This document shows, piece by piece, positions 2,184 to 27,833 of a stretch of DNA of 36,531 nucleotides. Both the position numbers and the translations under genes were made by a program. This DNA is from a virus (lineage: Duplodnaviria > Caudoviricetes). How positions within the stretch are numbered: the stretch's first letter is position 1; the number at the start of each line of letters is the position of its first letter. The notes below the pieces were generated by a model, which searched no databases, was not told the DNA's origin, and worked only from the letters and a program-made list of their open reading frames with translations. The stretch is taken from positions 1-36,531 of the IMG/VR virus record IMGVR_UViG_3300011335_000561; one strand, written 5' to 3'.

Positions 2184-2417
2184 TTACTTTTTATAAGGAT
2201 GTTCTTTATGCCATTTCTTAACTGAAGCTATTCCTTGTTTAACAGTCTTAGCTTTAGATTTTTGTGTAAGATCTATAGTATCCCATTTACCTTTATCTGA
2301 TGTAGGATGGGTTACCATAATACTACCCTTTTTACCTTTACCTAAACCTGTAGCACTTTCTTTTTTATACACTACATGTTTTTCACCACCTGCTGTAACT
2401 TTAGTTTTCTTAGCCAT
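2184..2417 (-). CDS. Small basic protein
   Basis: 77 aa Lys-rich ORF tightly packed between neighbours. Confidence 0.75.
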   Translation of the reverse strand: MAKKTKVTAGGEKHVVYKKESATGLGKGKKGSIMVTHPTSDKGKWDTIDLTQKSKAKTVKQGIASVKKWHKEHPYKK

Positions 2418-3391
2418 TATTTTGGTAATCCTGCTTTAAAAGTTGTTGTTAAATCAGTAAAAGTTGATGCATCTTTTGCTAGTTTTTGAAAACTCACTAC
2501 ATCTATATAAGCTTCATATCCATCATCTACATTTATAAATGTACCACTCATAAAAAATATATCTCTTGTACTACCATTAATTAAATTTGTTCCACCTATT
2601 GATTTTATACCTGTAGAACCAGTTAAAAATGTTTGACCTGCATCTCTTATTTTTTCAGTAGCATACACCATTCTAGCAGATGTATCTGGTAAAGCAGCAA
2701 GAGCAGATTTAAATGGATATAATGTATCAGTTAATAAAAACTGTTGATAATCATTAATTAAAAAATTTGCACCTGAACCAAATGTAGGAACTGATCCATT
2801 AGCAGCTACCCAAGTGATGGCTGCAAGTACAGCACCACAAGATGTATTTAATGTAGTTTGTCCTCTACGTAAACTTTGTCCTACCACTCCACTATTAGAT
2901 ATACCTATATGAGGCATGTTAATTACAAATAAAGCTCCTGTATCAGTAATATGACTTGCAAAAGCTCCCAATCCTGTAATACCTGTATGAGGATAACCAG
3001 CTAATCCACCTGAATAAAAAGGTCCAAGAAATTCATTTACTGAATTTGGTCCTTGACCTATATTATCATAATCTATAAAGTTTGGTCCATTTAAATCATC
3101 AGAACAAGCTGAAATAGAAGTAACCATATTATTAGCAGGATACCCTAAGTTCTTTAAAAACTTCTTAGTATATTCTCCAAATGCTTGAGCTGATACAGCA
3201 TTAGGGTATGTAACTCTAACTGTATTAGTATAAGAAGTTGGATTTCTAAAATCTGTGTTTTCATTTAATACCTCAATCCAATCTCCTGGTTTAGGTTTTT
3301 TAAATGAATAAGTTAATGTACCAGCAGCTATAGAACCATCTGGTGTACGTAGTACATAAGGTTTTTTAGGTTTGGTATTATAACTTCTCAT
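2417..3391 (-). CDS. LCIB/theta-type (beta-like) carbonic anhydrase domain protein with N-terminal extension
   Basis: SACSDD, GGLAGYPHTGITGLGAFASH, PHIGIS..G.VG..R.GQ and SCGA motifs give the Cys-His-Cys Zn ligand set of the LCIB family. Confidence 0.8.
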   Translation of the reverse strand: MRSYNTKPKKPYVLRTPDGSIAAGTLTYSFKKPKPGDWIEVLNENTDFRNPTSYTNTVRVTYPNAVSAQAFGEYTKKFLKNLGYPANNMVTSISACSDDLNGPNFIDYDNIGQGPNSVNEFLGPFYSGGLAGYPHTGITGLGAFASHITDTGALFVINMPHIGISNSGVVGQSLRRGQTTLNTSCGAVLAAITWVAANGSVPTFGSGANFLINDYQQFLLTDTLYPFKSALAALPDTSARMVYATEKIRDAGQTFLTGSTGIKSIGGTNLINGSTRDIFFMSGTFINVDDGYEAYIDVVSFQKLAKDASTFTDLTTTFKAGLPK

Positions 3392-3392
3392 T

Positions 3393-3476
3393 TTACTTTT
3401 TAGATTTTATTTTTTTTTCTTGTTTAAGCATTTCAGCAGATGGTTTTTTTCCAGAGCCTTTAGCAGCCCTGATGTT
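3393..3476 (-). pseudogene. Orphaned 3' half of the small basic gene at 4095-4262
   Basis: No ATG at the 5' end of the frame; reads NIRAAKGSGKKPSAEMLKQEKKIKSKK*, paralleling NLRSKAAQNKKTGAKPKAPTKAMLSQEEKIKSKGK* upstream of the GIY-YIG gene. Confidence 0.65.
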
Positions 3477-4098
3477 ATATTATAACATGTTTCCAACTTT
3501 TACCTCGATGAATATCCTTCACAGAATGATAACTTACTTGTAAAGTATCTGCAACATGTTTAGGAAGAAGACCAGTTAACAAATGTTTCTTAATCTCAAT
3601 GACTTGTTCTTCTGTAAGTTTAGCCATTTTATGATTAGAACCAGTTTTCCAATTCTTTGATAAGTTTTCTAAATGTTTATTTCTATAATTCTCATCTTTC
3701 CAGTTCTGTTTTTGAGAAACTGATTTCTTATACTTAACTTCTTCAGTTCTTTTTATACCAATATTGCTACCAGCAATCTTAGCAATGTTGTAATGCGGTT
3801 CAAGACTATCTATATACCGTTGTTCAGTTTCTAGAATTTTATCAGTAAAACACTCACAAACAATCTCAAACTTAAAGTTATCTTCTCCATGTTTATTAAC
3901 TGCTCTAATTAGTTTAACACAAGTATTTTTATTAGAACGTATATCATGTATATGAGTGTAATATCTTTTTATTAAATTATTTGTACTTCCTATGTAAAAC
4001 TTACCGTCAATAGTATTAGTAATTTTATAAATAACTCCTCCTTTTTTCTTTTCAGAGAAGTATTTTTGTTTACACTCATCACTAATAACTAGTATCAT
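3475..4098 (-). CDS. GIY-YIG homing endonuclease with NUMOD/HTH DNA-binding tail
   Basis: GVIYKITN..KFYIGST..R..H, EQRYID..YN; KRTEEVK (NUMOD3-like); C-terminal AKLTEEQV..GKSWKH HTH. Confidence 0.9.
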   Translation of the reverse strand: MILVISDECKQKYFSEKKKGGVIYKITNTIDGKFYIGSTNNLIKRYYTHIHDIRSNKNTCVKLIRAVNKHGEDNFKFEIVCECFTDKILETEQRYIDSLEPHYNIAKIAGSNIGIKRTEEVKYKKSVSQKQNWKDENYRNKHLENLSKNWKTGSNHKMAKLTEEQVIEIKKHLLTGLLPKHVADTLQVSYHSVKDIHRGKSWKHVII

Positions 4099-4262
4099 TT
4101 ACCTTTACTTTTAATTTTTTCTTCTTGAGATAACATTGCTTTTGTGGGAGCTTTAGGTTTAGCACCAGTCTTCTTGTTCTGGGCAGCTTTGCTTCTCAAA
4201 TTATCCCATAATCCACGTTGAGAGGTAGAACCATCTTTACGTTTAATCATTTGCTTACCCAT
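4095..4262 (-). CDS. Small basic protein (55 aa), homing-endonuclease target gene
   Basis: MGKQMIKRKDGSTSQRGLWDNLRSK...KGK*; its TGA overlaps the GIY-YIG ATG (ATGA); below ORF-track cutoff. Confidence 0.75.
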   Translation of the reverse strand: MGKQMIKRKDGSTSQRGLWDNLRSKAAQNKKTGAKPKAPTKAMLSQEEKIKSKGK

Positions 4263-4263
4263 A

Positions 4264-4446
4264 TTATTTTATTTTAATAAGACTAGCCACTTTAATACTA
4301 TCAATCTTAACACTGTCTTTTACTTTTACACTGTCAATATCTTTTACTAAAACTGAATCAATAGGAGAAACTACTTCTGAACCTGATTGACAACTGTTTA
4401 ATATAACTAATGATACTAATACTAAACTTACAATTACTTTTTTCAT
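4264..4446 (-). CDS. Small lipoprotein
   Basis: MKK + hydrophobic stretch + LNSC lipobox, then DSV/DSI repeats. Confidence 0.7.
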   Translation of the reverse strand: MKKVIVSLVLVSLVILNSCQSGSEVVSPIDSVLVKDIDSVKVKDSVKIDSIKVASLIKIK

Positions 4447-4466
4447 GTTTTTATTTTGAGGGTTTA

Positions 4467-4646
4467 TTACTTTTTTTTCTTAGCACCTGCTATTTTATCA
4501 GCAAATGTTATTTTATTTTTAGGGGGAGCTAAAGCTGCAAACTTTTTCTGAGCAGGTGTTTTACCAACTATTCCACCTTTTTTCATTTGTGTATCTCTCA
4601 TCATAGTTCCATTAGACATACCACCCATTTCCATTTTCTTTTTCAT
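4467..4646 (-). CDS. Small basic protein (59 aa) with MxxGG motifs
   Basis: MKKKMEMGGMSNGTMMRDTQMKKGGIVGKTPAQKKFAALAPPKNKITFADKIAGAKKKK*. Confidence 0.7.
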   Translation of the reverse strand: MKKKMEMGGMSNGTMMRDTQMKKGGIVGKTPAQKKFAALAPPKNKITFADKIAGAKKKK

Positions 4647-6865: not shown

Positions 6866-8485
6866 TTAGAATGATCCACCAGTTACAGGGTTTCTCATAA
6901 CAATTTTCAATACTTTGGTTGGATCTTTAACCCAAATTGCAGGCATTGTTTGTGTCATGAATACTCTATAACCATTGAAGTTACCAGAACTTTGGAATCC
7001 TTGAGTACGTCCCATGTAATCCATTGTACCATTTTGATAGAACCATTTCAATTGATTATCCCAAGATAATTTCAATAAGAAGATATTATCATTAGTGTTA
7101 TCAGTGATGTCAAAGATAATGAAATTATATGAACTTAATGGGAAACCATCAATAATTGGGTTTTCAATATCATTTGTATGAACATTGTCAAATGCAGGGT
7201 TCAATACAAATTTAACGTTAGCTAAGAATGGGATGATGTAACTAGTGTATGCAAAACCAAAGTTTAAGTCCATACCTGTACCAGTAACAGCTCCTAGTTC
7301 ATGAGCATTAAGAACTAAACCAGAATTAACTGCTTCTTTCTTAATTGCTTCATTAACAAGTTTCATACCACCCATACCTGTTTGTACAATCAAAGATCTT
7401 TGAGGATCTGGTCCTTTAAATTCAACTTTACCATTGAAGAAGTTGAAGATTTCAGATTTAAACAAGTCTAAGTTGAAAGAAGCTTTATTGTAAATTCTCT
7501 TATAAGAATTATCTAATTGCTTCCAAAGACCCACTGATAAACGAATATCATCTGGTCCATCTTGTCTAACCTTACCACCTTGACCCCACATTAAGTAAGT
7601 TTCAATGTCATTAGCAATTTTAGTTAAGTGTGCTGCTTCTAAAGTAGTTAAAAAAGAACGTGTAAGTTGACCATTAGCATAAGCTTTTTTTACATAGTCT
7701 TTACCCATTTTCTCAGCCATTGTTTCCAAATTGGTTACAGATGGATCTACATTTTTGTCAAAGTTTCTCCACATTTCAATAACTGGGATAGTACCATCAG
7801 CTTTCATACCACCTTTCATCATTAAGTCTGCACGACTAGAAATAGAATAGTGTACGTGAGCTTCTGCTCCACCAACATAGTTATAGAATTCACGGAAACC
7901 AGCAGATACATTACCTAAGTCTGAGAATCTTTCTCCATACTCTCCACGAGCAGAACCTTTTCTGAAAACTTTAGTACCCACTTTCAAATACTTGTTGTCT
8001 AAGTATTTAGTGTTATCATTGTTTACCAATTGTACAGTGTAGATAAAACCATCACCAGCTGGGATGATATCATCAACTGTAATGTACATTTCCACACCAT
8101 TGTACTTGTCATAAGTAATGATGTCACCATGTCCAAATGAACGTTTGTTCAATTTGATTTTAAATGTTTGACCATCAATACCTTTAGTAGCATTACTTGA
8201 TTCAATATCTTCAGTGATGTAAGGAAGATCTTGAGCTACAGGTATTTGCCATTTGTACTCACCACGGTTATTATCTACTGAAATAACATTCTTTCCACCA
8301 AAACTAGACATTTGGTATAATGGCATTTCTACTTTTTGAGCCATTGCCCATAAGTCCACTGGACCTAAATCTGTAGGTTCAGCTGATTTAAGGAGGTTAG
8401 AAAGGTGATAAGAGTCTACGTGTGAGCTTGTTTGATAATGGTTATCACGTAGAAATATACCATTATTTAAAACTGGAGTTGCCAT
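6866..8485 (-). CDS. Major capsid protein (crAss-like)
   Basis: 539 aa; YLMWGQGG, GLWKQL, TGMGG, NPAFD, IWVKDPTK motifs; position after the scaffold-like gene. Confidence 0.9.
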   Translation of the reverse strand: MATPVLNNGIFLRDNHYQTSSHVDSYHLSNLLKSAEPTDLGPVDLWAMAQKVEMPLYQMSSFGGKNVISVDNNRGEYKWQIPVAQDLPYITEDIESSNATKGIDGQTFKIKLNKRSFGHGDIITYDKYNGVEMYITVDDIIPAGDGFIYTVQLVNNDNTKYLDNKYLKVGTKVFRKGSARGEYGERFSDLGNVSAGFREFYNYVGGAEAHVHYSISSRADLMMKGGMKADGTIPVIEMWRNFDKNVDPSVTNLETMAEKMGKDYVKKAYANGQLTRSFLTTLEAAHLTKIANDIETYLMWGQGGKVRQDGPDDIRLSVGLWKQLDNSYKRIYNKASFNLDLFKSEIFNFFNGKVEFKGPDPQRSLIVQTGMGGMKLVNEAIKKEAVNSGLVLNAHELGAVTGTGMDLNFGFAYTSYIIPFLANVKFVLNPAFDNVHTNDIENPIIDGFPLSSYNFIIFDITDNTNDNIFLLKLSWDNQLKWFYQNGTMDYMGRTQGFQSSGNFNGYRVFMTQTMPAIWVKDPTKVLKIVMRNPVTGGSF

Positions 8486-9898: not shown

Positions 9899-12652
9899 TT
9901 ATTTTTCTTTCTTTTTAGCAGGTTGTTTAAAGTCATATTTGTTTTTATTTTCTCTAGCCACCTGAAGTTGTTTATCAGCTATCTGTTGTTGAGCTTGAAG
10001 TTTCTCTCTTTCTATATTGTGTTTTTCTTGAGTTTGAGGAGTTCTATTAATTTCCTTCTCACGTTCAAAGTTCATTGTTTCCTGATAGTTTTGTTGATCC
10101 TGAATTTTAGCCATAGCATCTATATAATCAGACTGTTCATTTTTATTAATATCAACCATAGCTCCCATACCAGAAGCTCTAATCTGAGCCTCAAGGATTC
10201 TAGCTTTTCTATCTTTCTCAGATTCATCAGCTTTAAATTGATTAGAAGCTTGTAATGCAGCTTGTTCAGCTTGGATTTGTTTATCCTGCATTTCTTGTTG
10301 ATGTTGTTGTTCCTGTTGTTTCTGAGAATTAACTTTTTCTTCAGCAGATTTAAGAACACCTGTAAGTTCAGCAATGGATTCTGATTTAATAACATTACCC
10401 AAATCATATATAGAAGCTCCTGTAGCATTATTATTAAGAGCTAGTTGTTTAAGCTGCTCCATTATAGCACGGGAATTAGTTTTAGTTGTACAGAATATAT
10501 TTAAATCTCTAAGAAGTAAATCTGTTCCATTCATTTGGAAATTAATCTTCTCATCAGCTCCAGTGATGTATTGTAAACGTAAGCTAGGTTTTTTAGAATT
10601 ATAATACTGAGCTAAGTCAGTTCTCATCTGATGCACTCTAGGCATTAAGTTATCACTATGTTGAATAAAGTATTGTTCTGTCTGAGCATAAGAAGCATTA
10701 GCTGCTTGTTCCACTCCTGTAGCAGTTTGTTGTTGAGCAATCTGCATACCCATTCTTTGTTGATTCAATCCAATCACTTCAAAAGCCTGTGTTTTAAAAT
10801 ATGTAGCTAATTGTATCCTAGATAGTAAACGTTGAGTTTGTTCTAAGTTTAATACTTGATAGTGTTGGAAGTTTAATGCATTTTCTGTATTAGTGATGCT
10901 AGTGTCTAAAGGAAGCATTTGAAAGTTCTTCATAGCTACATAAGCTTTAGCTAGATTGTTCTTACCCCAGTCTTCTCCCAATGAGTGACGTGGTAGGGCA
11001 TTCTGATCTAACATAATCACTGTACCAAGTTCATCCACTAGAATATCTGCTATCTGATTGTTTACAATATTATATCCAATCTGAAATGGTTTCATTAAAT
11101 CTACAAGAGACACTGAACGGGTATTTCTATCTCCAAATACAGATCCTTCTACTGGAAGTTTACATCAATAAACTGTAGCATCCCCTTTAAACTGAAAAGG
11201 AACACGTCCAGGTCTACCACCATTAAGTCCTAAATATATAGGGTTTATACCTCCAGGGTTATTCATACCCCAAAAAGCAGGTCTGTTAGGTCCAATTTTT
11301 ACACCACCCCAAACTTCATTAATCCATATCCAATCTATATGTTCTCCAAACACTAAATTATCTTTAGTTTTTTGTTTCCATATAGAAGTGTCATATTGTG
11401 GTTTATCTGTAACTTTATATTCTTCTGATATAATCTCTTGTATAATATCTCCTTCAGTTGTTATTTTAGTAAGGTGTCCAACTTTTCTTTGACTCTTCCA
11501 ATAGATAGTTGACACTCTAAGCATATAACTTTTACCAAAATCTTGTAAGTCTTCTGAGTCTGATAAAATCCATTGTACAATATCTCCAAATTGACTTCCA
11601 GCATCATATAAAGACGTAAACTGTCTATACCCCAAACTAGGCATTTGTGTATTCCATTCATGAGTTCTTTTTGGGTCATAGTAACTTCCATCATTTTGCA
11701 TTCCTTGTATAGCATACCCAGCTGAACGTGCAGGGTATATAGCTTCTAAAGCTTCTAATTGTTGATCATTCATCATCCATCCATACTTATCTACAACATC
11801 TGATATAGACATCATATCTAATTTACCCACCCAGTTACCTTGAGATACGTAACGTACATCAGGGCTTTTGTGATAGAAAGTAAGTAGAGGATTCCATAGT
11901 TCCACCTCATAATCATCCTCCATCATATTAAAATGCCAAAATTCTCTATCTGTAATAAGACTATCTCTAAAAGCTCTTTCTTCTAATTCTTGCATTCTAA
12001 ACCTTTCTTCATCAACTTTCATTTGATGATCAGCCCATTCTTCAATCATTGATCTATAATCTTTCTTAAAGAATTGTTCTATTTCAGGAAGGCTTTTAAG
12101 TTTTTCAGGATTTAATTGTTGTTGAGCTTCTTCACTAGATGGATCCAATCCCATTTCCATTATAGTAGCCATTTGTTTTTGTTGAGCCTGTTGTAACAAC
12201 ACTTGTTCAATCATTCCTCTTTTCTCTTCTAACATCTCATTGTATGACATGTCATCAACAGCTCTAAACATTATTCTTGAACTTCTTTTAGAAAATTCAT
12301 TTGTAAGAACATTAATTACATTAGGAATAATAGGATAGAATTTTAGCTCAAATGCTGACACATCTTCTTTAGTGAGAGTATCAATAAGATCAGCCATCTC
12401 ATTATCTTCTTCTACAATATAATCTTGTTTATCAATAATACCTTTAGCTAATTTATAGTTCTTCATCAAACGTCTAGCATTACGTCTAAGTTGTTTCATT
12501 CCCTGAAACTCTAACCAGTCAAGATTCCATGCTCTCCATTGATCATCCTTTTCTTTTTCTGGTACAAACTGAAACGGTTGTATAAGAGTACCCATCTTAT
12601 TGTACTCCACTTTAGCACCCTTTTTCAGTTGTAAAGCATTATATATTTGCAT
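9899..12652 (-). CDS. Portal protein (917 codons) interrupted by one in-frame TGA at 11165-11167
   Basis: ORFs 11165-12652 and 9899-11113 are in frame, joined by 17 sense codons (TVY*CKLPVEGSVFGDRNTRSVSLVD); YPIIPNVIN, WINEVWGG and LVDLMKPFQ motifs; follows terminase. Confidence 0.85.
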
Positions 12653-20482: not shown

Positions 20483-20686
20483 TTATATATTAGTTTGTTG
20501 TTTAGGAGAAACTGAATACCTGTTGTAACTTATGTACCTACTCTTATTATTACCCTTAATAATACCAGCCACCATCATTCTTTCTGTTATCCCATCCCTT
20601 ACATCAATAACAGGAATCACTTTCTTTAAGCCATCCCTATTTATACTTTCTCTATAATGGGAACTTGTGTGTGGAGTCTTACTCAT
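20483..20686 (-). CDS. Hypothetical protein, first gene of the minus-strand block
   Basis: 67 aa; preceded by an AT-rich promoter-like motif. Confidence 0.6.
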   Translation of the reverse strand: MSKTPHTSSHYRESINRDGLKKVIPVIDVRDGITERMMVAGIIKGNNKSRYISYNRYSVSPKQQTNI

Positions 20687-20724
20687 AATACAATATACTT
20701 TAAATGTTTAAACTTAGCAAATTT
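20687..20724 (-). promoter_or_regulatory. Putative late promoter AAATTT-N5-GTTTAAA..GTATATT
   Basis: Similar motif on the minus strand at ~9818-9851, upstream of the scaffold/capsid genes. Confidence 0.45.
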
Positions 20725-20946
20725 ATTATTATAATTTTCATACTCCCATATAAAGATATGCCCCCATGTTAATAACATATAATACACCCCCCTCCCTCTT
20801 TCTTATACTAATTTTTTATATTAATTTTTTTTGTAGAAAAAAGTTTGATGTTAGAGAATGGGGTTGCCTATCCCTTAACCGACCCTACCCTAATTTCGGC
20901 AAGCGGGTAACCCCCATTAACAAACTTGCCGTTAAAACTAAATAAA

Positions 20947-21240
20947 ATGATTACAAAAGGTAAAATTGTAGAAAAAAAAACAAGTCTTATTAGTGTACAA
21001 ACTACTGATGGAACAGTTAATGTTAGTCTTCATAAACACGGATTAGTGTTTTTAAAACTGTCTTCTAAAAATGTTGGTGATGAAGTTGAACTTGATTGTG
21101 ATAAATCAGATGTTGCTCAAGGTTATTCGGGTAATATTTATTTAACTCAAACTAATAGAGTTAGTGAAAGTTTAATTAAAGCAAAAGAATTAATGTTAAA
21201 AGAACATAATTTAAATAATGCAATAAAAGGATTAGATTAA
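20947..21240 (+). CDS. Hypothetical beta-barrel-like protein, first plus-strand gene
   Basis: ATG at 20947 after an A-rich leader; followed by a terminator. Confidence 0.7.
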   Translation: MITKGKIVEKKTSLISVQTTDGTVNVSLHKHGLVFLKLSSKNVGDEVELDCDKSDVAQGYSGNIYLTQTNRVSESLIKAKELMLKEHNLNNAIKGLD

Positions 21241-21241
21241 T

Positions 21242-21268
21242 AAAAGGGGTGAAAAACCCCTTTTTTTT
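21242..21268 (+). terminator. Rho-independent terminator
   Basis: AAAAGGGGT-GAAAA-ACCCCTTTT + T-run. Confidence 0.85.
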
Positions 21269-21347
21269 ATATATATACACTATATAACATTCCTTCCTAC
21301 TTACATTCTTATTCTTATTCTTATTCACACATTAAATTCATTTAACA

Positions 21348-21485
21348 ATGAAACAAGTAACTCTTACATTTAGAGAATGGGATACCTTTAGACAAATTGC
21401 TAAGTTTATTTATGACTTTACAGTTAACAAAGACTCTGTTATAGTTAATTGTGAAGCTCATTACTTAGAGCCATTAGGTTATTAA
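21348..21485 (+). CDS. Small hypothetical protein (45 aa)
   Basis: MKQVTLTFREWDTFRQIAKFIYDFTVNKDSVIVNCEAHYLEPLGY*, AACA-ATG leader. Confidence 0.6.
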   Translation: MKQVTLTFREWDTFRQIAKFIYDFTVNKDSVIVNCEAHYLEPLGY

Positions 21486-21494
21486 CCCTACAAT

Positions 21495-21535
21495 AAGACC
21501 TGTATATATTATACATATATATGTGTACAGGTCTT
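21495..21535. repeat. Inverted repeat with (TA)n core
   Basis: AAGACCTGTATATAT / ATGTGTACAGGTCTT. Confidence 0.7.
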
Positions 21536-22379
21536 TACACTATTGACATTAATTCTTATTAATAACTTAACGTGTTACCTTAGTAGGCAAGAGCATCTTT
21601 TGAAATGATATATAAAGCTTGTCTATTAATACTAACTAGTAGGGGTCTTACAACTATGATAGAAGGAAATAGCTTACTCCATTGTAGACAATAGCCTTTA
21701 AGCCGTAATAAGTTTAAAGGCTTTCTTATATTATTTAAGAATAAATAAAGTTGTCTCCAGCCTGTGGACAAAGTAGACTTTGGTATTGATAATCAGTTAG
21801 TTATAAAAATAGTTTTTAGTGATTATGAGTGTGTATGGGAGTGGGTGAAAAGACACAGAGCTATCTATTAACACACAAAAAGTGCTCTAAAAAATAAAAA
21901 AATGGCGGATAAGATGGCTATAACTCTTGAGAGCTGAATAAACTCTTACAAACTTGTGGGGCTTCTATGTTATTTATATATAGTATTATCAGTACTAGAT
22001 ATATATTCAAACACTCTGATAAGGTGTTAATAACAAGATGGTGCAGACTTAAAAATCAAGTAGTGCTTATATATAGGGAATAACAGAAACCTATTTATTT
22101 AGCTCTTTAAGGCAGTAATGTCCAAAATCTGTAATGTTGTACAAACCACCTCAACATTTAGTCTATAGGTTTGTGGTAAACCTAATTAATAATCTATTTA
22201 TCTATAAGGATAAATTAGATGCTTCTTATGTTTAGATGTTAGACCGTCACTTCTTTTATGGTTAAAGGAAGATACATTAGGAGTTTTATATTAAACAAAT
22301 CAAAAGCAAGGGCTGAGACCACAGCCCAAAAGTCCTAACTCAAAACCTCTGTCTGTAGGTATATACAGATACAACAATT

Positions 22380-22646
22380 ATGTCTCCAAGAGATTTATTA
22401 TTAAATGCATGTAAGGATCATATGAATATTAACATATCTGATATTAAAGTGGTTTATGAAGAGTATATTCAGTATTTTTATTCTATGGGTAGTTCTAGAT
22501 ATTTTATAACAATATCTAAAGATAGACTTGCAACTGGTATTATTAATGAAGATGGTAACACTTATGCTAGTGGATTATTTATAGATGTTATTAAATATCT
22601 TATAGATAATTACAGTAAAGTTAATTTTAATGAGATGCAGGCTTAA
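22380..22646 (+). CDS. Hypothetical protein
   Basis: 88 aa, followed by a terminator. Confidence 0.65.
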   Translation: MSPRDLLLNACKDHMNINISDIKVVYEEYIQYFYSMGSSRYFITISKDRLATGIINEDGNTYASGLFIDVIKYLIDNYSKVNFNEMQA

Positions 22647-22655
22647 CAACTCTTT

Positions 22656-22695
22656 AAGTTCAGGGGAGACAACTTCAAACCTGAACTTTATTTTT
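22656..22695 (+). terminator. Terminator (paralog of 24547-24590)
   Basis: AAGTTCAGG/CCTGAACTT + T-rich tail. Confidence 0.7.
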
Positions 22696-22727
22696 CCTAG
22701 GCTTTAATTTATTCACATTTTAAAACA

Positions 22728-22975
22728 CTCTGTCTGATCAACAGGGGCTTGACTATAGTGGTCTTGCAGGAATAAGAGTTATGGGTAACAACCATAAATG
22801 TTGATTATGACTCATACAAAAGGTGAAGACCATTCCTATTAGGATGAAACTAATCCTATAAATCAACTATAGGTTTCCCTGGAAAACTGGTTATTAAGGA
22901 ATCATAGTTAACACTCATATTGTCTGATGTATCAGAAGTGTTCTACCTTTTTACCAGTTTTTACGGAATAAGGAA
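22728..22975 (+). ncRNA. Candidate structured non-coding RNA(s)
   Basis: AGTGGTCTT/AAGACCATT, TTATGG/CCATAA, TAGGAT/ATCCTA, GTTGATT/AATCAAC (crossing), AAAACTGGT/ACCAGTTTT, AACACT/AGTGTT. Confidence 0.5.
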
Positions 22976-23020
22976 GCAATAGAAAATAATATTTATTCAC
23001 AATTAAAAAACAAATATATT

Positions 23021-23338
23021 ATGCAAGTTTATCAAGTTTATAAAAACTATCAAGCAAATGATAATGATGATTGGAGTCGTTGGTGTGGAAATGAATCAAT
23101 TTCCTTTCATAGTTCTATAGAAGGAGTTTCCTCTAAGATTAAGTCTCTTATAGATGAAGAATTTAAAAGATTTGAAAATATTAAATCTTTGAACCCTCAT
23201 TTAAATGATAATCATTGGAGAAACCAAGAGAGTAATGTTAAAAATAATATTATTGTTATTTCCGAGGGATTTGGTAGTTCTTGCTCTTTTGAAGAATATC
23301 CTATATATGATTATAGGGTGATTGATGTTTTAGACTAA
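23021..23338 (+). CDS. Hypothetical protein
   Basis: 105 aa, A-rich leader. Confidence 0.7.
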   Translation: MQVYQVYKNYQANDNDDWSRWCGNESISFHSSIEGVSSKIKSLIDEEFKRFENIKSLNPHLNDNHWRNQESNVKNNIIVISEGFGSSCSFEEYPIYDYRVIDVLD

Positions 23339-23340
23339 CT

Positions 23341-23417
23341 AATAAGGTGCTATAAAGTGTCATACTAACCTGAACATAGAAATATGTCATAATTAGTGGA
23401 TGGACAGCCTTATTTTT
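23341..23417 (+). terminator. Extended hairpin with U tail
   Basis: AATAAGG/CCTTATT enclosing ACTAA/TTAGT and ACATA-GAAA-TATGT. Confidence 0.5.
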
Positions 23418-23611
23418 ATTAATGCACCATTCTCAAGTGGATATGAAGACTTCTTAGTTTTTAGGAAGCTGGGTTTAAACCAAAAGCTTAACTCTTGTAA
23501 AATATCTAAGATGTGAAACCACACTGATCATTAAATGTTAATGGCTATTATCAGTCAACCTCTGTTAATCAGTTTCCCAAGGGTGATAAAAAGATTTATT
23601 TTCCTAAACCC

Positions 23612-23642
23612 TTGGGAATGTGGTTTTATTGTTGTATCTTTG
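23612..23642 (+). promoter_or_regulatory. Bacteroidota sigma-A-type promoter (-33 TTG, -7 TATCTTTG)
   Basis: TTG 23612-14, 20-nt spacer, TAnnTTTG 23635-42, 4 nt before ATG 23647. Confidence 0.7.
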
Positions 23643-23646
23643 TAAC

Positions 23647-24177
23647 ATGATTACAATATACAAAATAACAAGTCCTACTGGTAAAATATATGTTGGACAA
23701 ACAAAAGATTATAAAAAAAGAATGAATTTATATAAAATTCTACATTGTAGAACTCAATATAGATTACATAACTCTTTGAAAAAATACGGTTTTGCAAATC
23801 ATATTTGTGAAATCATAGAAGAAATTTGTGATACAGTAGCAGATGAAAGAGAGCAATATTGGATTGCTTTTTATAAATGTTATTGGAAAGATGAAAATAA
23901 AGGTCTTAATCTCAATAGAGGAGGAAATAGACCTAAACATACAGAAGAAACAAAGAAAAAACTTTCTGAAATGTTTTCTGGTTCTAAACATGGTAAAGCT
24001 AAAAAACTATATCAATATACTCTCGATGGAGTATTTGTTAAAGAATGGTTTTGTATGAAAGATATAGAACGAGAATTTAATTATAAAACAACCTGCTTAT
24101 CTAAAGCAGCTAAAAATAATAGTAAAACTGCTTATGGATATAAGTGGTATTATGAACCTCAGCACGAGCAGTTGTAA
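23647..24177 (+). CDS. GIY-YIG homing endonuclease with NUMOD3/NUMOD1 domains
   Basis: TIYKITSPTGKIYVGQT..R, EQYWI..LN, KHTEETKKKLS, LYQYTLDG.FVKEW..TAYGYKW. Confidence 0.9.
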   Translation: MITIYKITSPTGKIYVGQTKDYKKRMNLYKILHCRTQYRLHNSLKKYGFANHICEIIEEICDTVADEREQYWIAFYKCYWKDENKGLNLNRGGNRPKHTEETKKKLSEMFSGSKHGKAKKLYQYTLDGVFVKEWFCMKDIEREFNYKTTCLSKAAKNNSKTAYGYKWYYEPQHEQL

Positions 24178-24299
24178 TTTGTGGTTGTCTATATGCAATC
24201 TATAAATTATCTTCTCGAAGGTAAACACTTTACAACTGAGTGCAGAGGGATATTTTTATTTAAACTCAAAAATGCCTAACAGAGCTTATCTGTATTACT

Positions 24300-24539
24300 A
24301 TGTTTAAAATAGGACAAACTGTAAAATTAATATCTAAAACGTTAGATGTTAATTCTGAATTTCATTATGGTCAAGAGTTTAAAATAGTTGCTGTTAATAA
24401 TCCTTCAGATAATACAGTGATTAGTATAAACTTAGTAACCAGCAACCCTAAACTTTGGGAAATAATTTCAGAAAATTTTGTAGACTATAATGATTTACCT
24501 GAGTCTATGGAATATGGTAATAACGAACTTAATAGTTAA
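24300..24539 (+). CDS. Hypothetical KOW/SH3-like protein
   Basis: FKIGQTVK start; followed by a terminator. Confidence 0.65.
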   Translation: MFKIGQTVKLISKTLDVNSEFHYGQEFKIVAVNNPSDNTVISINLVTSNPKLWEIISENFVDYNDLPESMEYGNNELNS

Positions 24540-24546
24540 TCTCTTT

Positions 24547-24590
24547 GAGTTCAGGGGATATGTAGAAATATATGTTCCTTGAACTTTTTT
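24547..24590 (+). terminator. Terminator (paralog of 22656-22695)
   Basis: GAGTTCAGGGGATAT/ATGTTCCTTGAACTT + T-run. Confidence 0.75.
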
Positions 24591-24597
24591 AACTACT

Positions 24598-24995
24598 TAA
24601 TGCATTCTTCTAATAGTATAAGCATCTTATTATAGGCTGCTCACTTTGCAAGGTAAGGCTTACACAAATCCTGCACCAGAGGACAACCGTTAAGACAACC
24701 ATTTGAGAACTGAGTTAGTTGAAAGACTAAGGAAGCTATAAGATGTGATACTAGCTGATTAATCCTGTACCCTTGAAAAACTCGTATTATTCAAAAGGGG
24801 TCATACTCAGAATTGGCACACCTACTAAAGAAGGTGACAGTGTTTGGGCACATTTGATAGATAAGCAGGAATTAAAGGGGTAGAAAACTAATCAGTTTCT
24901 AGGAGAATAGTGTAATATAAATCAAAGGGTTAGCCACAAAAAAATAACTTAGGTAGAGGGTTAGGAACTACCATTATTACACTAAATGCATAAAG
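24598..24995 (+). ncRNA. Large (~400 nt) structured RNA, paralog of 23417-24252
   Basis: UGCAUU/AAUGCA closing helix, UUCUUCUA/UAGGAGAA, CAUCUUAU/AUAAGAUG, AGCUGAUUA/UAAUCAGUU, UAGUGUAAUA/UAUUACACUA, GAAA tetraloop; no ORF. Confidence 0.65.
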
Positions 24996-24997
24996 AC

Positions 24998-25031
24998 AAA
25001 CTCCTTAATAGAAATATTAGGGAGTTTTTTT
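24998..25031 (+). terminator. Terminator closing the large RNA
   Basis: AAACTCCTTAATA-GAAA-TATTAGGGAGTTT + T-run. Confidence 0.85.
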
Positions 25032-25059
25032 ATTAAATAACAATTAAAAACAAACTAAT

Positions 25060-25353
25060 ATGAATTTTACAAGAATCAATGTTCCAATATTTAATGTTGT
25101 ATGTAAAACAACAAATCAATCAACTAATGAAGAACAAATTGATTTAGTTCAATTAAATGAATATGAACTAAGAACATTACAATATGAAGTTGGAAAAGGA
25201 ATACACCCTGATAAACAATTTAAAGTTATTGATAGTGACTTATTTGTAGCCACAATTGAACCTACAGGGTATTTAAGTAAAGAACTAAAAGGAATGAGTT
25301 TATCTCAAACATTAGCAATATCCTTAGTAGGATTAACAGGTAAACGATATTAA
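25060..25353 (+). CDS. Hypothetical protein
   Basis: 97 aa, A-rich leader. Confidence 0.7.
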   Translation: MNFTRINVPIFNVVCKTTNQSTNEEQIDLVQLNEYELRTLQYEVGKGIHPDKQFKVIDSDLFVATIEPTGYLSKELKGMSLSQTLAISLVGLTGKRY

Positions 25354-25375
25354 AAACAATTAAAAATTAAAAACA

Positions 25376-25585
25376 ATGAAATATTCAAACACAAGAATGT
25401 TTATAGAATACATTCTAATTGCATTTGCTTCCTATCTTATTCTATCTCTAGTTGTTACCATTATAGGTGGGCATACATATAGAGAAGTATTATGTTCTTT
25501 CTTTCAGCTTTATGCTGTTATGTTCCTTTATTGGTGGATTCCAATATTTAGAATAGTTGATATGGAGAAAGAAAATGACCAATAA
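25376..25585 (+). CDS. Small two-TM membrane protein
   Basis: Two hydrophobic segments. Confidence 0.7.
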   Translation: MKYSNTRMFIEYILIAFASYLILSLVVTIIGGHTYREVLCSFFQLYAVMFLYWWIPIFRIVDMEKENDQ

Positions 25586-25602
25586 CAATTAAAACAAACA
25601 AT

Positions 25603-26028
25603 ATGCAGAATGAATTTGTTCCTTATACTGAAGCATTAGCTTTAAAAGAATTAGGATTTGATGAACCATGTTTTTATAGATATAATCATCACGGAACAGC
25701 AGAACCAGACATTAAAAGAGATGGAAAATTAGTAAATAATCGCAAATGGGAGAAGTTTGGGGATTATGATGATTGTGTAGGAGCACCACTATACCAACAA
25801 GCATTCCGTTTCTTTAGAGAGAAGTATAATTTACAACATGAGATATACTATCTTGATGATTTAATTAAAAATGGTTACAAAGTTACAGACACTTCAACAA
25901 ACACAGAACTTACAGAATTTCAATACAAGCATAATTACTTTGAATTAGGTGGCTATGACTTTGAAGAAGCAGAACTTGAATGTCTTAAACAACTAATAAA
26001 AATAGTAAAAAACCAAACCAAAAATTAA
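25603..26028 (+). CDS. Conserved hypothetical phage protein
   Basis: EFVPY..ALALKELGFDEPC..APLYQQAFRFFREKY..EEAELECL. Confidence 0.8.
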   Translation: MQNEFVPYTEALALKELGFDEPCFYRYNHHGTAEPDIKRDGKLVNNRKWEKFGDYDDCVGAPLYQQAFRFFREKYNLQHEIYYLDDLIKNGYKVTDTSTNTELTEFQYKHNYFELGGYDFEEAELECLKQLIKIVKNQTKN

Positions 26029-26060
26029 TTTAAAACAACAAAAAACAAAATCAAAACAAC

Positions 26061-26186
26061 ATGAAAAAAGAATTAACACCAGGAAAAATATTCCTAATTG
26101 TAATACTAATTATTGGTATGTGTAGCTGTAGAAGAGAATCTTGTCCTTCACATGATAGTAAATGGTTCTATAACAATAGAATGTAA
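26061..26186 (+). CDS. Small lipoprotein-like peptide (41 aa)
   Basis: MKKELTPGKIFLIVILIIGMCSCRRESCPSHDSKWFYNNRM*. Confidence 0.55.
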   Translation: MKKELTPGKIFLIVILIIGMCSCRRESCPSHDSKWFYNNRM

Positions 26187-26197
26187 AATAAAATTTT

Positions 26198-26407
26198 ATG
26201 ACACAAAAAACAAATGAACAAGGACAAAAAGTCTATGAAGTGTTAAGTGAAGAATATATTAAGCTTAAAGAATTAGAACTTAATGAAATTAATTGGAAAA
26301 TTAGTGAATTTAAACATAGCATATCTAATGCTAAAGAATATTCTGATTTATTAAATAAGTCTGGTGAACTGTATTCTCATATAGAAGATTTAAAAGCAGA
26401 GCTTTAA
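26198..26407 (+). CDS. Hypothetical coiled-coil protein
   Basis: 69 aa. Confidence 0.65.
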   Translation: MTQKTNEQGQKVYEVLSEEYIKLKELELNEINWKISEFKHSISNAKEYSDLLNKSGELYSHIEDLKAEL

Positions 26408-26415
26408 ACAATATT

Positions 26416-26628
26416 AAATTCTCTCATAACTGAATAATCAATAGTAAATCAGTCAACAAGATGGAATAAAGCAATGAGATATGTCCTAGTCTCACGGTTT
26501 ACAGTAGAAGCTAAATCTACGTTATTGATTGGTAAGATAGACAGAAGAAGTGGAATTAACCACTGGGACGGGACTAAATGTACCTGATGTTTATTCCATA
26601 TTTAGCATTGTGGATTATGAGAGAATTT
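26416..26628 (+). ncRNA. Pseudoknotted structured RNA
   Basis: Perfect 14-bp closing AAATTCTCTCATAA/TTATGAGAGAATTT; ATGGAATAAA/TTTATTCCAT; crossing AATCAATA/TATTGATT and GTCCTAGT/ACTGGGAC. Confidence 0.65.
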
Positions 26629-26850
26629 TTTAAAATAGTAGTTTCTCGTACAGACTACTATTTTCGATCCTGAAAAATGAGAATAGCTCAACTATTCAAA
26701 ACAGCTCTGAGAGTCAATGAAATGAGTGTCGTAGAACAAGTAAAAACGTTATCACTCTATTAATAAGTAGCAATTACATTATAGTCCTGAGAAAATTATA
26801 ATGTAATTGTGAACATTAGTATATTTTAAAACAACAAAAACTAAAAAACA

Positions 26851-27078
26851 ATGGACATATTAAATGACATAATTAATAAATTGAATAATAAATATTCAGG
26901 AAAATTAAATTGCCAACAACAAAAAGCTGATTTATTTGTGTATGTAAATGGTGTAGAAGAATCTATAAAAGAAATAACTACTCAAAAAATATATTTCAAT
27001 AATAGTGAGTGTGATGTTGATTTAATTGATGCTGATATTCATTCACTTGTATATATTAATCATATTCTTGACTTATAA
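26851..27078 (+). CDS. Hypothetical protein
   Basis: 75 aa, A-rich leader. Confidence 0.7.
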   Translation: MDILNDIINKLNNKYSGKLNCQQQKADLFVYVNGVEESIKEITTQKIYFNNSECDVDLIDADIHSLVYINHILDL

Positions 27079-27089
27079 ACTAAACAACA

Positions 27090-27833
27090 ATGAATACTGT
27101 AAAAGACTTAGCCTTAAACTGGTGGAATAAATTATCTAATAGAGAAAAAGCAAAATTGACTTTTTATTTTGATGCTGGTAGAAGATGGGAATGTTTATTT
27201 GAAGCAGAAATAGAAGACATATTCTATCAAGAGGTGATACTCAAATGGTACGTTGGTAAATATGGTAAAGTTGAATTTGATTATAATGAACAACAAATCA
27301 AAGAAATATACCTTAAAGAACATACTAAAGAACAACCACAAAATGAATGGGTAAGTTGTGAAGGTTATTCAGCACAAGAATATCCTGATTTTAAAAAAGG
27401 ATGGGGAATAGAATGTTTTAATGGTACAAAAGGAACTATTGAAGCCTATCAGAACCCTTATTTGCTTATTGAAGGGCAAGTTGACAAAATCCATAAAATG
27501 AATGTTAAAGCCTATATAACTTTTGAACAACCACAAGATAATACTATTGATGTGGAAGAAGTTTTTAATAACCCCAATTTATGTGCTTCATATTTTGGAG
27601 GAGCTTTAGAAGTTAAACAACCTTATTTTAAAGGTAAAGGAGAACATTCAGTTAATGAATTAGAAAAGATGTGCCAACAATACAAAGATTATGTTTCTCA
27701 TATCAATTCACAACCCAAAGCAATAGAAGATAATGTATGGGATGAAGTAGAAAGAATACTTTGGAATCCAGACCAATCAACAGGAAATAAAGTAGCAATG
27801 TTAAAAGCTAAATACTCACTAATTAAAAAATAA
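27090..27833 (+). CDS. Hypothetical mosaic protein
   Basis: 247 aa with repeated EQPQ linkers. Confidence 0.75.
   Translation: MNTVKDLALNWWNKLSNREKAKLTFYFDAGRRWECLFEAEIEDIFYQEVILKWYVGKYGKVEFDYNEQQIKEIYLKEHTKEQPQNEWVSCEGYSAQEYPDFKKGWGIECFNGTKGTIEAYQNPYLLIEGQVDKIHKMNVKAYITFEQPQDNTIDVEEVFNNPNLCASYFGGALEVKQPYFKGKGEHSVNELEKMCQQYKDYVSHINSQPKAIEDNVWDEVERILWNPDQSTGNKVAMLKAKYSLIKK

Follow-up and report, generated by a model that had tools for sequence, protein, structure and literature searches.

Two related RNAs of a crAss-like phage on a twister-like ribozyme frame with an arm at loop L4

A stretch of viral DNA of 36,531 nucleotides (IMG/VR record IMGVR_UViG_3300011335_000561; hereafter, the window) contains two large RNAs that appear to share a series of short motifs in the same order, one with and one without the active site of a twister ribozyme. 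This raises the question of whether the two are truly related, what they derive from, and what has become of catalysis in each of them.

The RNA pair and its setting

The window represents 36.5 kb of a crAss-like phage, with a Crass capsid gene (6866-8485) and genes for terminase and portal; the portal protein is divided over two ORFs (9899-12652, minus strand), and a gene for an LCIB/C-type beta carbonic anhydrase lies at 2417-3391 (minus strand; E 5e-33). Strand use and GC skew change over near 20700-21000, and both RNAs lie within the rightward arm, which consists of small ORFs and gene-free DNA, 1.4 kb past a Hatchet ribozyme (21924-22061, plus strand; E 4e-15, 79.8 bits, above the gathering score). 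The Hatchet ribozyme is the only real Rfam match in the window, and it also occurs in three of 20 loci of the family described below; such neighbours are expected, since ribozymes occur in clusters (PMC6765202). River metagenomes of another study contain near-identical DNA, and contigs of its run X3 cover 23395-25111 in three records with no differing letter, indicating that this part of the window is not an assembly artefact.

Copy 1 (23417-24252) and copy 2 (24595-24995), both on the plus strand, had been described from ten motif positions, every one of which was exact, and TAAGATGTGA, TAATCAGTTTC and AGGAAGCT are each present at exactly two sites in the 36.5-kb window, counting both strands. 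The reported differences at the active site are also real: copy 2 has UCUAGG (24898) and UAAAG (24991) where copy 1 has UCCCAAGG (23575) and GAGGG (24245), the general-base G being missing in copy 2. As the initial annotation had proposed, copy 2 is flanked on both sides, by a terminator-like hairpin and U tract directly 5′ (24541-24586, plus strand) and by an intrinsic-terminator-like hairpin directly 3′ (24998-25027, plus strand), both from a hairpin search against shuffles; eight such hairpins lie in 20500-27200, versus 1.8 ± 1.6 in shuffles.

The paralogy of the two copies holds beyond chance. A profile HMM built from 41 other loci detected copy 1 (E 1e-30 and 1.4e-9) and copy 2 (24717-24787, E 4.7e-4), and an ordered-block profile from these 41 loci scored copy 2 at 45.1 bits against a maximum of 19.2 across 60 simulated windows, a score that favours copy 2 because the blocks were picked after it was seen. 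An earlier block profile that included the catalytic blocks ranked at least four other sites on that strand above copy 2. One of the supposedly common motifs, AGGAAGCT, turned out not to be homologous, because copy 1 carries it in arm A, in the variable loop, and copy 2 at the end of one of its nested modules; it is found in only one of 61 other long forms (see below), and a pattern coupling it with the arm matched no stretch in IMG/VR. Helix lengths do differ between the copies, by more than had been suggested: 580 nt of copy 1 are an endonuclease cassette, and about 230 nt of copy 2 are two foreign modules.

A twister-like core with an arm at L4

A 19-nt pattern taken from the 3′ end of copy 1 and run on IMG/VR found at least 121 loci, in an estimated 270 or so stretches. 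The 114 distinct 3′-anchored matches listed comprise 73 short twister-like RNAs, 17 long forms, three remnants behind an inserted ORF, six without L4 in which the 5′ strand pairs right across the active site, and 15 that are unparsed, partial or truncated. With L114 and L203, unparsed by the script and zipped by eye, the active site is zipped in eight of the 114 copies listed (six by script, two by eye). A 5′-anchored pattern gave 64 stretches, and 62 distinct long forms were parsed over all loci, window included. An arm-anchored scan, which leaves every core base free, returned 74 stretches, 68 of them distinct and one due to chance, with parses that were fully intact in 39, altered in 11 and without a 3′ end in 18.

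The Crass capsid gene is present in all three family-bearing records tested (and in four of five records overall, two of them chosen for the modules described below), and each of five near-complete genomes holds one or two copies. A GTDB scan gave 25 matches, seven or eight with family context, all on MAG contigs from scattered taxa, which are likely phage DNA in bins. Blastn of GenBank phages with long and short forms gave no real match, and the family pattern is absent from Lbo-JY46 and cr126_1.

Pairing was evaluated on 41 long forms, window excluded, remaining from 43 within the length limits after removal of one near-duplicate and one edge case, using a structure drawn on one of the 41. 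Among 2009 cells, 91.3% were paired, as compared with 34-45% in slid-partner controls, and 25 of 49 pairs changed on both sides, whereas shuffles gave a mean of 13.1 and none of 500 reached this number, in a control that ignores relatedness. The larger conserved architecture on a twister-like core that had been suspected exists and covaries. In the 62 distinct long forms, a conserved two-helix arm is inserted at the 5′ edge of L4, and P4 closes a multiloop from which both arms, A and C, emerge and which also holds L4. A U.U in arm A is invariant (41/41), its asymmetric internal loop is conserved, and all eight pairs of the arm C helix vary on both sides across the family. Pairing reaches 99-100% in P2, 97.6% in P4 and 58.5% in P1, with two-sided changes (those of P2 in L447, L461, L472, L482 and L503), and 95.9% in the T1 pseudoknot (L1-L4), which covaries in four loci (CCU/AGG in L246 and L470; CCA/UGG in L448 and L482).

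The arms can shrink independently, either arm A or arm C being a stub in L125, L486 and record 2 of run X10, and the variable tips are mostly unique (43 similar pairs among 252 segments). One long form (L244, minus strand, about 900-1500 from the far end) has a small ORF in the P5 tip and an otherwise intact frame.

The core of the long form has the order and bases of a twister: U-A-A, P2, L4, P5, G-A and the T1 strand. A1-A2 are present in 62 of 62 long forms, where the search pattern partly fixes these bases, and kept in 59 of the 64 copies of the arm-anchored scan, where core bases were free; GAGGG occurs in 52 of 54 long forms with a parsed 3′ end. Position 13, in rice twister numbering, covaries with the base that precedes the P2 3′ strand (C-G in 45/54 and U-A in 8/54; 53/54 together). 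In T2 (L2-L4), one C-G pair is invariant (41/41) and a second is possible in 49/54; since position 13 covaries with the fifth P2 pair, T2 would keep the single C-G pair. Other readings were rejected: a group I intron had no Rfam match, and both copies are intergenic; for this as for RNase P, HDV-like, pistol and K-turn readings the ordered elements, judged by consensus motifs, were missing and Rfam gave no matches.

The family shares with twister P1 with P5 (RF03160; PMC5408937, PMC11662667) the P1-L1-P2-P4-L4-P5 order, the U-A cleavage dinucleotide, A2, the general-base G, a CCC/GGG T1 pseudoknot and, save for the last base, the L4 of rice (PMC11662667). It differs in the two-helix arm at the 5′ edge of L4, a 5-bp P2, a T2 of probably one pair, a long variable P5, zipped non-catalytic members and the lack of a match to RF03160, which recognized none of five family-bearing records at E 10 and likewise not the one short member compared with it. 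An insertion in L4 is not described for published twisters in the available text of PMC5408937 and PMC11662667, nor is the armed variant in the accessible parts of the literature consulted, which held few subscription papers (PMC10085705, PMC6765202, PMC2988022, PMC5408937, PMC11662667, bioRxiv 2020.03.07.982082). According to PMC11662667, natural twisters tolerate a short P1 and a long P3/P5, and defects in pseudoknot T2 reduce their cleavage; short members of our family may already be among the more than 2600 twisters tested there.

We conclude that both RNAs derive from a phage twister-P1 variant missed by Rfam; the family is twister by anatomy, from which we infer cleavage. What had been announced as a new family of large ncRNAs with catalytic and non-catalytic members is indeed uncatalogued, no Rfam family matching it, GOLLD and ROOL models included, but it is not a new class. 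It is rather a ribozyme variant with occasional dead derivatives, because most members by far have an intact core. Both kinds of member, with an active site and without, do exist, although copy 1 is probably not a working one, its L4 being predicted to be locked.

The endonuclease cassette of copy 1 and the nested modules of copy 2

Every catalytic base is present in copy 1. The 5′ half of its core (23417-23436), a sequence invariant in 41/41 aligned long forms, comprises a P1 of 3 bp, the predicted cleavage site U23420/A23421, A23422, the P2 5′ strand (23423-27), C23428 and the P4 5′ strand (23432-36). It is followed by arm A (23437-23522), which the alignment resolves into a 4-bp helix, the internal loop, the helix with the U.U and a variable tip common to L223 and L271; by the arm C helix and variable tip (23524-23573), with two-sided changes in the family; and by L4 (23575-23582), consisting of the T1 strand CCC, AA and G. 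Alignment and fold place the P5 helix and its variable tip at 24169-24238, and the sequence at 24240-24252 provides the P2 3′ strand, the general-base G24245, an A, the T1 strand GGG and the P1 3′ strand.

A GIY-YIG cassette separates P4 from P5. Its leader forms an 11-bp hairpin that pairs with L4 (23574-23618; predicted −19.2 kcal/mol), and 4 nt before the ATG stands a TAnnTTTG motif (23635-23642; one of two such sites on the plus strand in 20600-27200), presumably, from its consensus, the Bacteroidetes-type −7 promoter element of the endonuclease. The ORF (23647-24177, plus strand, 176 aa) matches PF01541 (E 5e-6, 27.1 bits; cut-off 22.6), PHROG 314 (E 1e-19) and PHROG 5123, and its stop codon falls within the P5 5′ strand. 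A second GIY-YIG ORF lies elsewhere in the window (3475-4098, minus strand).

In copy 1, three of five P4 pairs are kept and the unpaired probability of L4 is at most 0.03, whereas 51 uninterrupted long forms show a median of 0.61 and never fall below 0.20, under a folding model that ignores pseudoknots, proteins and ribosomes. Copy 1 is predicted not to cleave, because the cassette splits P4 from P5 and the 11-bp hairpin locks L4; the blocking strand is transcribed about 630 nt ahead of the 3′ half of the core, which suggests silencing in cis.

Endonuclease ORFs at L4 were found in five loci and belong to two lineages, one formed by the window, L001 and L158 (82-91% identity; the window 91% to L001 and 86% to L158) and the other by L086 and L487 (68% between the two, 26-32% against the first lineage). 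The anti-L4 hairpin occurs in four of the five (window, L001, L158 and L487). In L158 the ORF is preceded by a complete core, and in L001 a short copy that is intact follows 260 nt further on; these intact cores beside a split copy fit replacement of a lost ribozyme. The homing site of the endonuclease is likely the highly conserved, multi-copy ribozyme DNA, with expression from its own promoter.

Copy 2 keeps all helices, with the active site zipped into a plain helix. Fold and block profile assign to its 5′ skeleton (24595-24629) the UAA, a 5-bp P2, the lost C14 position, an extended P4 strand (24606-12) and arm A strands; the arm A 3′ strands and the arm C 5′ strand follow at 24739-24761, and the 3′ skeleton (24889-24995) contains the arm C 3′ strand, P4, P5, the P2 3′ strand and the UAAAG replacing GAGGG. 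C14, T1 and the general-base G are gone, and P2, arm A, arm C and P5 are retained; the degenerate L4 has been taken into the extended P4 (24900-06), and P5 (24909-16 with 24976-83) has one pair deleted on both strands. The G-to-U change allows the active-site strands to pair (z −3.1).

The arm subtype of copy 2 is that of L296 and L307, both with intact cores, and a scan for it (112 loci, 97 distinct matches including the window) gave these two and copy 2 as the only real ones. All 23 metagenome matches to a copy-2-specific pattern were chance, and no close homologue or orthologue appeared in the scans made. Rfam gave no match to copy 2 at E 10, and none to the window at E 1 beyond Hatchet.

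No Bacteroidetes-type −7 motif is present near the start of copy 2, and the upstream hairpin ends about 10 nt before it. This hairpin has a paralogue at 22650-22695, the first 18 bases being the same but one, and both stand directly after a stop codon and directly before a gene-free structured stretch. The gene-free stretch at 22695-22985 (plus strand) is hairpin-rich and likely another uncatalogued RNA; its 3′ part recurs in L187 directly before the family P5 module. Further gene-free stretches with long complementary ends and no Rfam match lie at 26425-26625 and 21480-21900.

Module A (24630-24738, plus strand) has a near-invariant core of about 28 nt (24674-24703) in which one G-C/A-U pair covaries strictly, and before this core lies a hairpin whose last bases are ACCA; RNAalifold returned two pairs only, on an alignment with misaligned flanks. 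The module was found in 18 IMG/VR stretches and in cr126_1 (loci L205-L222 and L082), between tRNAs, within a tRNA arm or after tmRNA. It lies free in L211, with a gene on one side and a tRNA on the other (88% over 79 nt, E 1e-22), takes the place of the anticodon arm in a tRNA-like gene (L209, L218), and adjoins what we take to be a group I intron P7-like motif in L212, L214 and L219. Module B (24762-24884, plus strand; 88% over 109 nt, E 4e-28 to phage Lbo-JY46) is free-standing in Lbo-JY46 and L204 and has a shorter skeleton in G004. Its 5′ strands lie next to each other and have potential partners in two 3′ strands that lie apart (L081, L204 and L527; three or four sequences only), in what is possibly, on an alignment of three sequences, an H-type pseudoknot around a large inner domain. 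Neither module matches Rfam. Both are of separate origin from the copy 2 frame, and the family brings to light with them two further uncatalogued RNA modules, one of them in a deposited phage isolate (Lbo-JY46).

Catalysis, decay and known systems

Beyond the observed shared skeleton, covariation, cassette and missing bases, we consider it probable that the two RNAs descend from a phage twister-P1 variant with an L4 arm whose intact members likely cut, that copy 1 is silenced as predicted, and that copy 2 likely persists as a folded frame. Intact members would cut themselves at U-A, and the downstream RNA would gain a defined, base-paired 5′ end; the structured 3′ product, with the whole frame, the variable tips and often the next gene, would be released and stabilised. 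The inserted GIY-YIG cassette would silence the ribozyme in copy 1. Copy 2, its active-site bases gone, would act as a folded frame for the two nested modules, ended by a terminator, so that a ribozyme would have become a passive scaffold in this phage, and may be under selection as a frame; since it has no close homologue, such selection is not separable from recent decay.

Other members have also lost the active site. Among the 64 arm-bearing copies whose 5′ end was parsed, five show the zipping seen in copy 2 and are without A1-A2 (L449, L455, L473, L509 and L510), and all five lack the C14 linker (versus 2/59 of the others) and have lost the arm internal loop (versus 7/59; Fisher p 1e-4, on counts made by eye and ignoring relatedness). 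This joint loss links the arm loop to catalytic status, and the retention of the frame in these copies indicates that the frame outlives the active site, although neutral zipping by templated mutation may also account for such copies. The invariant internal loop may dock on the core or regulate it. A bolder reading, which we put forward only tentatively, is that the arm makes a naturally regulated twister, its internal loop binding a protein or ligand or docking on the core and so gating cleavage; that the RNA is a modular chassis whose three tips take other ncRNA domains; and that copy 2 is a domesticated, non-catalytic 400-nt scaffold presenting two modules. 

Template-switch mutation can perfect inverted repeats, and copy 2 and the other zipped copies could be dying pseudo-ribozymes in which such an event has perfected the repeat at the active site, the modules alone being of consequence. 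The 3′ end of copy 2 is indeed one base off the reverse complement of its own 5′ end, in L203 and L473 the two ends complement each other perfectly across the active site, and dead copies are few (5/64) and seemingly unrelated, copy 2 having no homologue in the scans. We nevertheless find this rather unlikely, given that copy 2 has also retained, far from the termini, both arms, a P4 that has re-paired and a P5 whose deletion affects both strands, and that L4 survives in four of the five dead long forms, all five of which have lost the arm loop, a pattern that is not uniform decay.

The near-invariance of the general acid A1, A2, the general base G and T1, with covariation, and the Hatchet neighbours make it improbable that the family never cleaves and is instead a twister-derived structural RNA (protein platform, decoy or stabiliser) that keeps twister bases for folding only. 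Such an RNA would agree with the unmatched Rfam twister, a T2 of likely one pair, an L4 that accepts an insertion of 110-290 nt, large variable tips and viable members without an active site, as well as with the abundant unexplained intergenic RNAs of phi14:2 (bioRxiv 2020.03.07.982082), although the latter lack family motifs. Very improbable is a role of the conserved blocks as DNA signals (phage promoters or recombination cassettes) with incidental pairing, for although an ORF starts within 60 nt downstream of 37 of 97 copies (the other 60 lack one; among 400 random positions the rate is 12%) and tips are occasionally common to different slots (four of the 43 similar pairs), the two-sided changes in 25/49 pairs, the tolerance of G.U and the pseudoknot covariation are signatures of RNA.

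Little is known of what self-cleaving ribozymes do in phages (PMC6765202). With descent from a twister-P1 variant as the preferred reading, one phage group offers hundreds of natural variants, whether short, armed, endonuclease-split or active-site-less, which make testable whether a twister functions with an L4 domain and a reduced T2, whether an appended domain gates it, and how a ribozyme changes into a structural RNA.

Positions 2880-4620 of phi14:2 contain no family motif; the stretch at about 4030-4500 (L531), one of its two abundant intergenic transcripts, has, by eye, tmRNA-like ends. The pair described here resembles those abundant RNAs in occupying gene-free stretches that head the early-type arm of a crAss-like genome (bioRxiv 10.1101/2020.03.07.982082). 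As for the cassette, T4 endonucleases have hairpin-plus-promoter leaders, and SegB and I-TevI, examples of the free-standing and intron-encoded types, share with it a GIY-YIG ORF in a non-coding RNA region, a promoter-like motif of its own and an upstream hairpin (PMC2988022). Unlike these, it lies inside a small ribozyme gene without being spliced out, and its hairpin is paired to the catalytic loop of the host RNA, whereas the T4-type hairpin covers the start codon (PMC2988022). Finally, the two RNAs are comparable to GOLLD and ROOL (Rfam) as phage multi-helix RNAs of several hundred bases, but they have no Rfam match and owe their size to insertions into a ribozyme frame.
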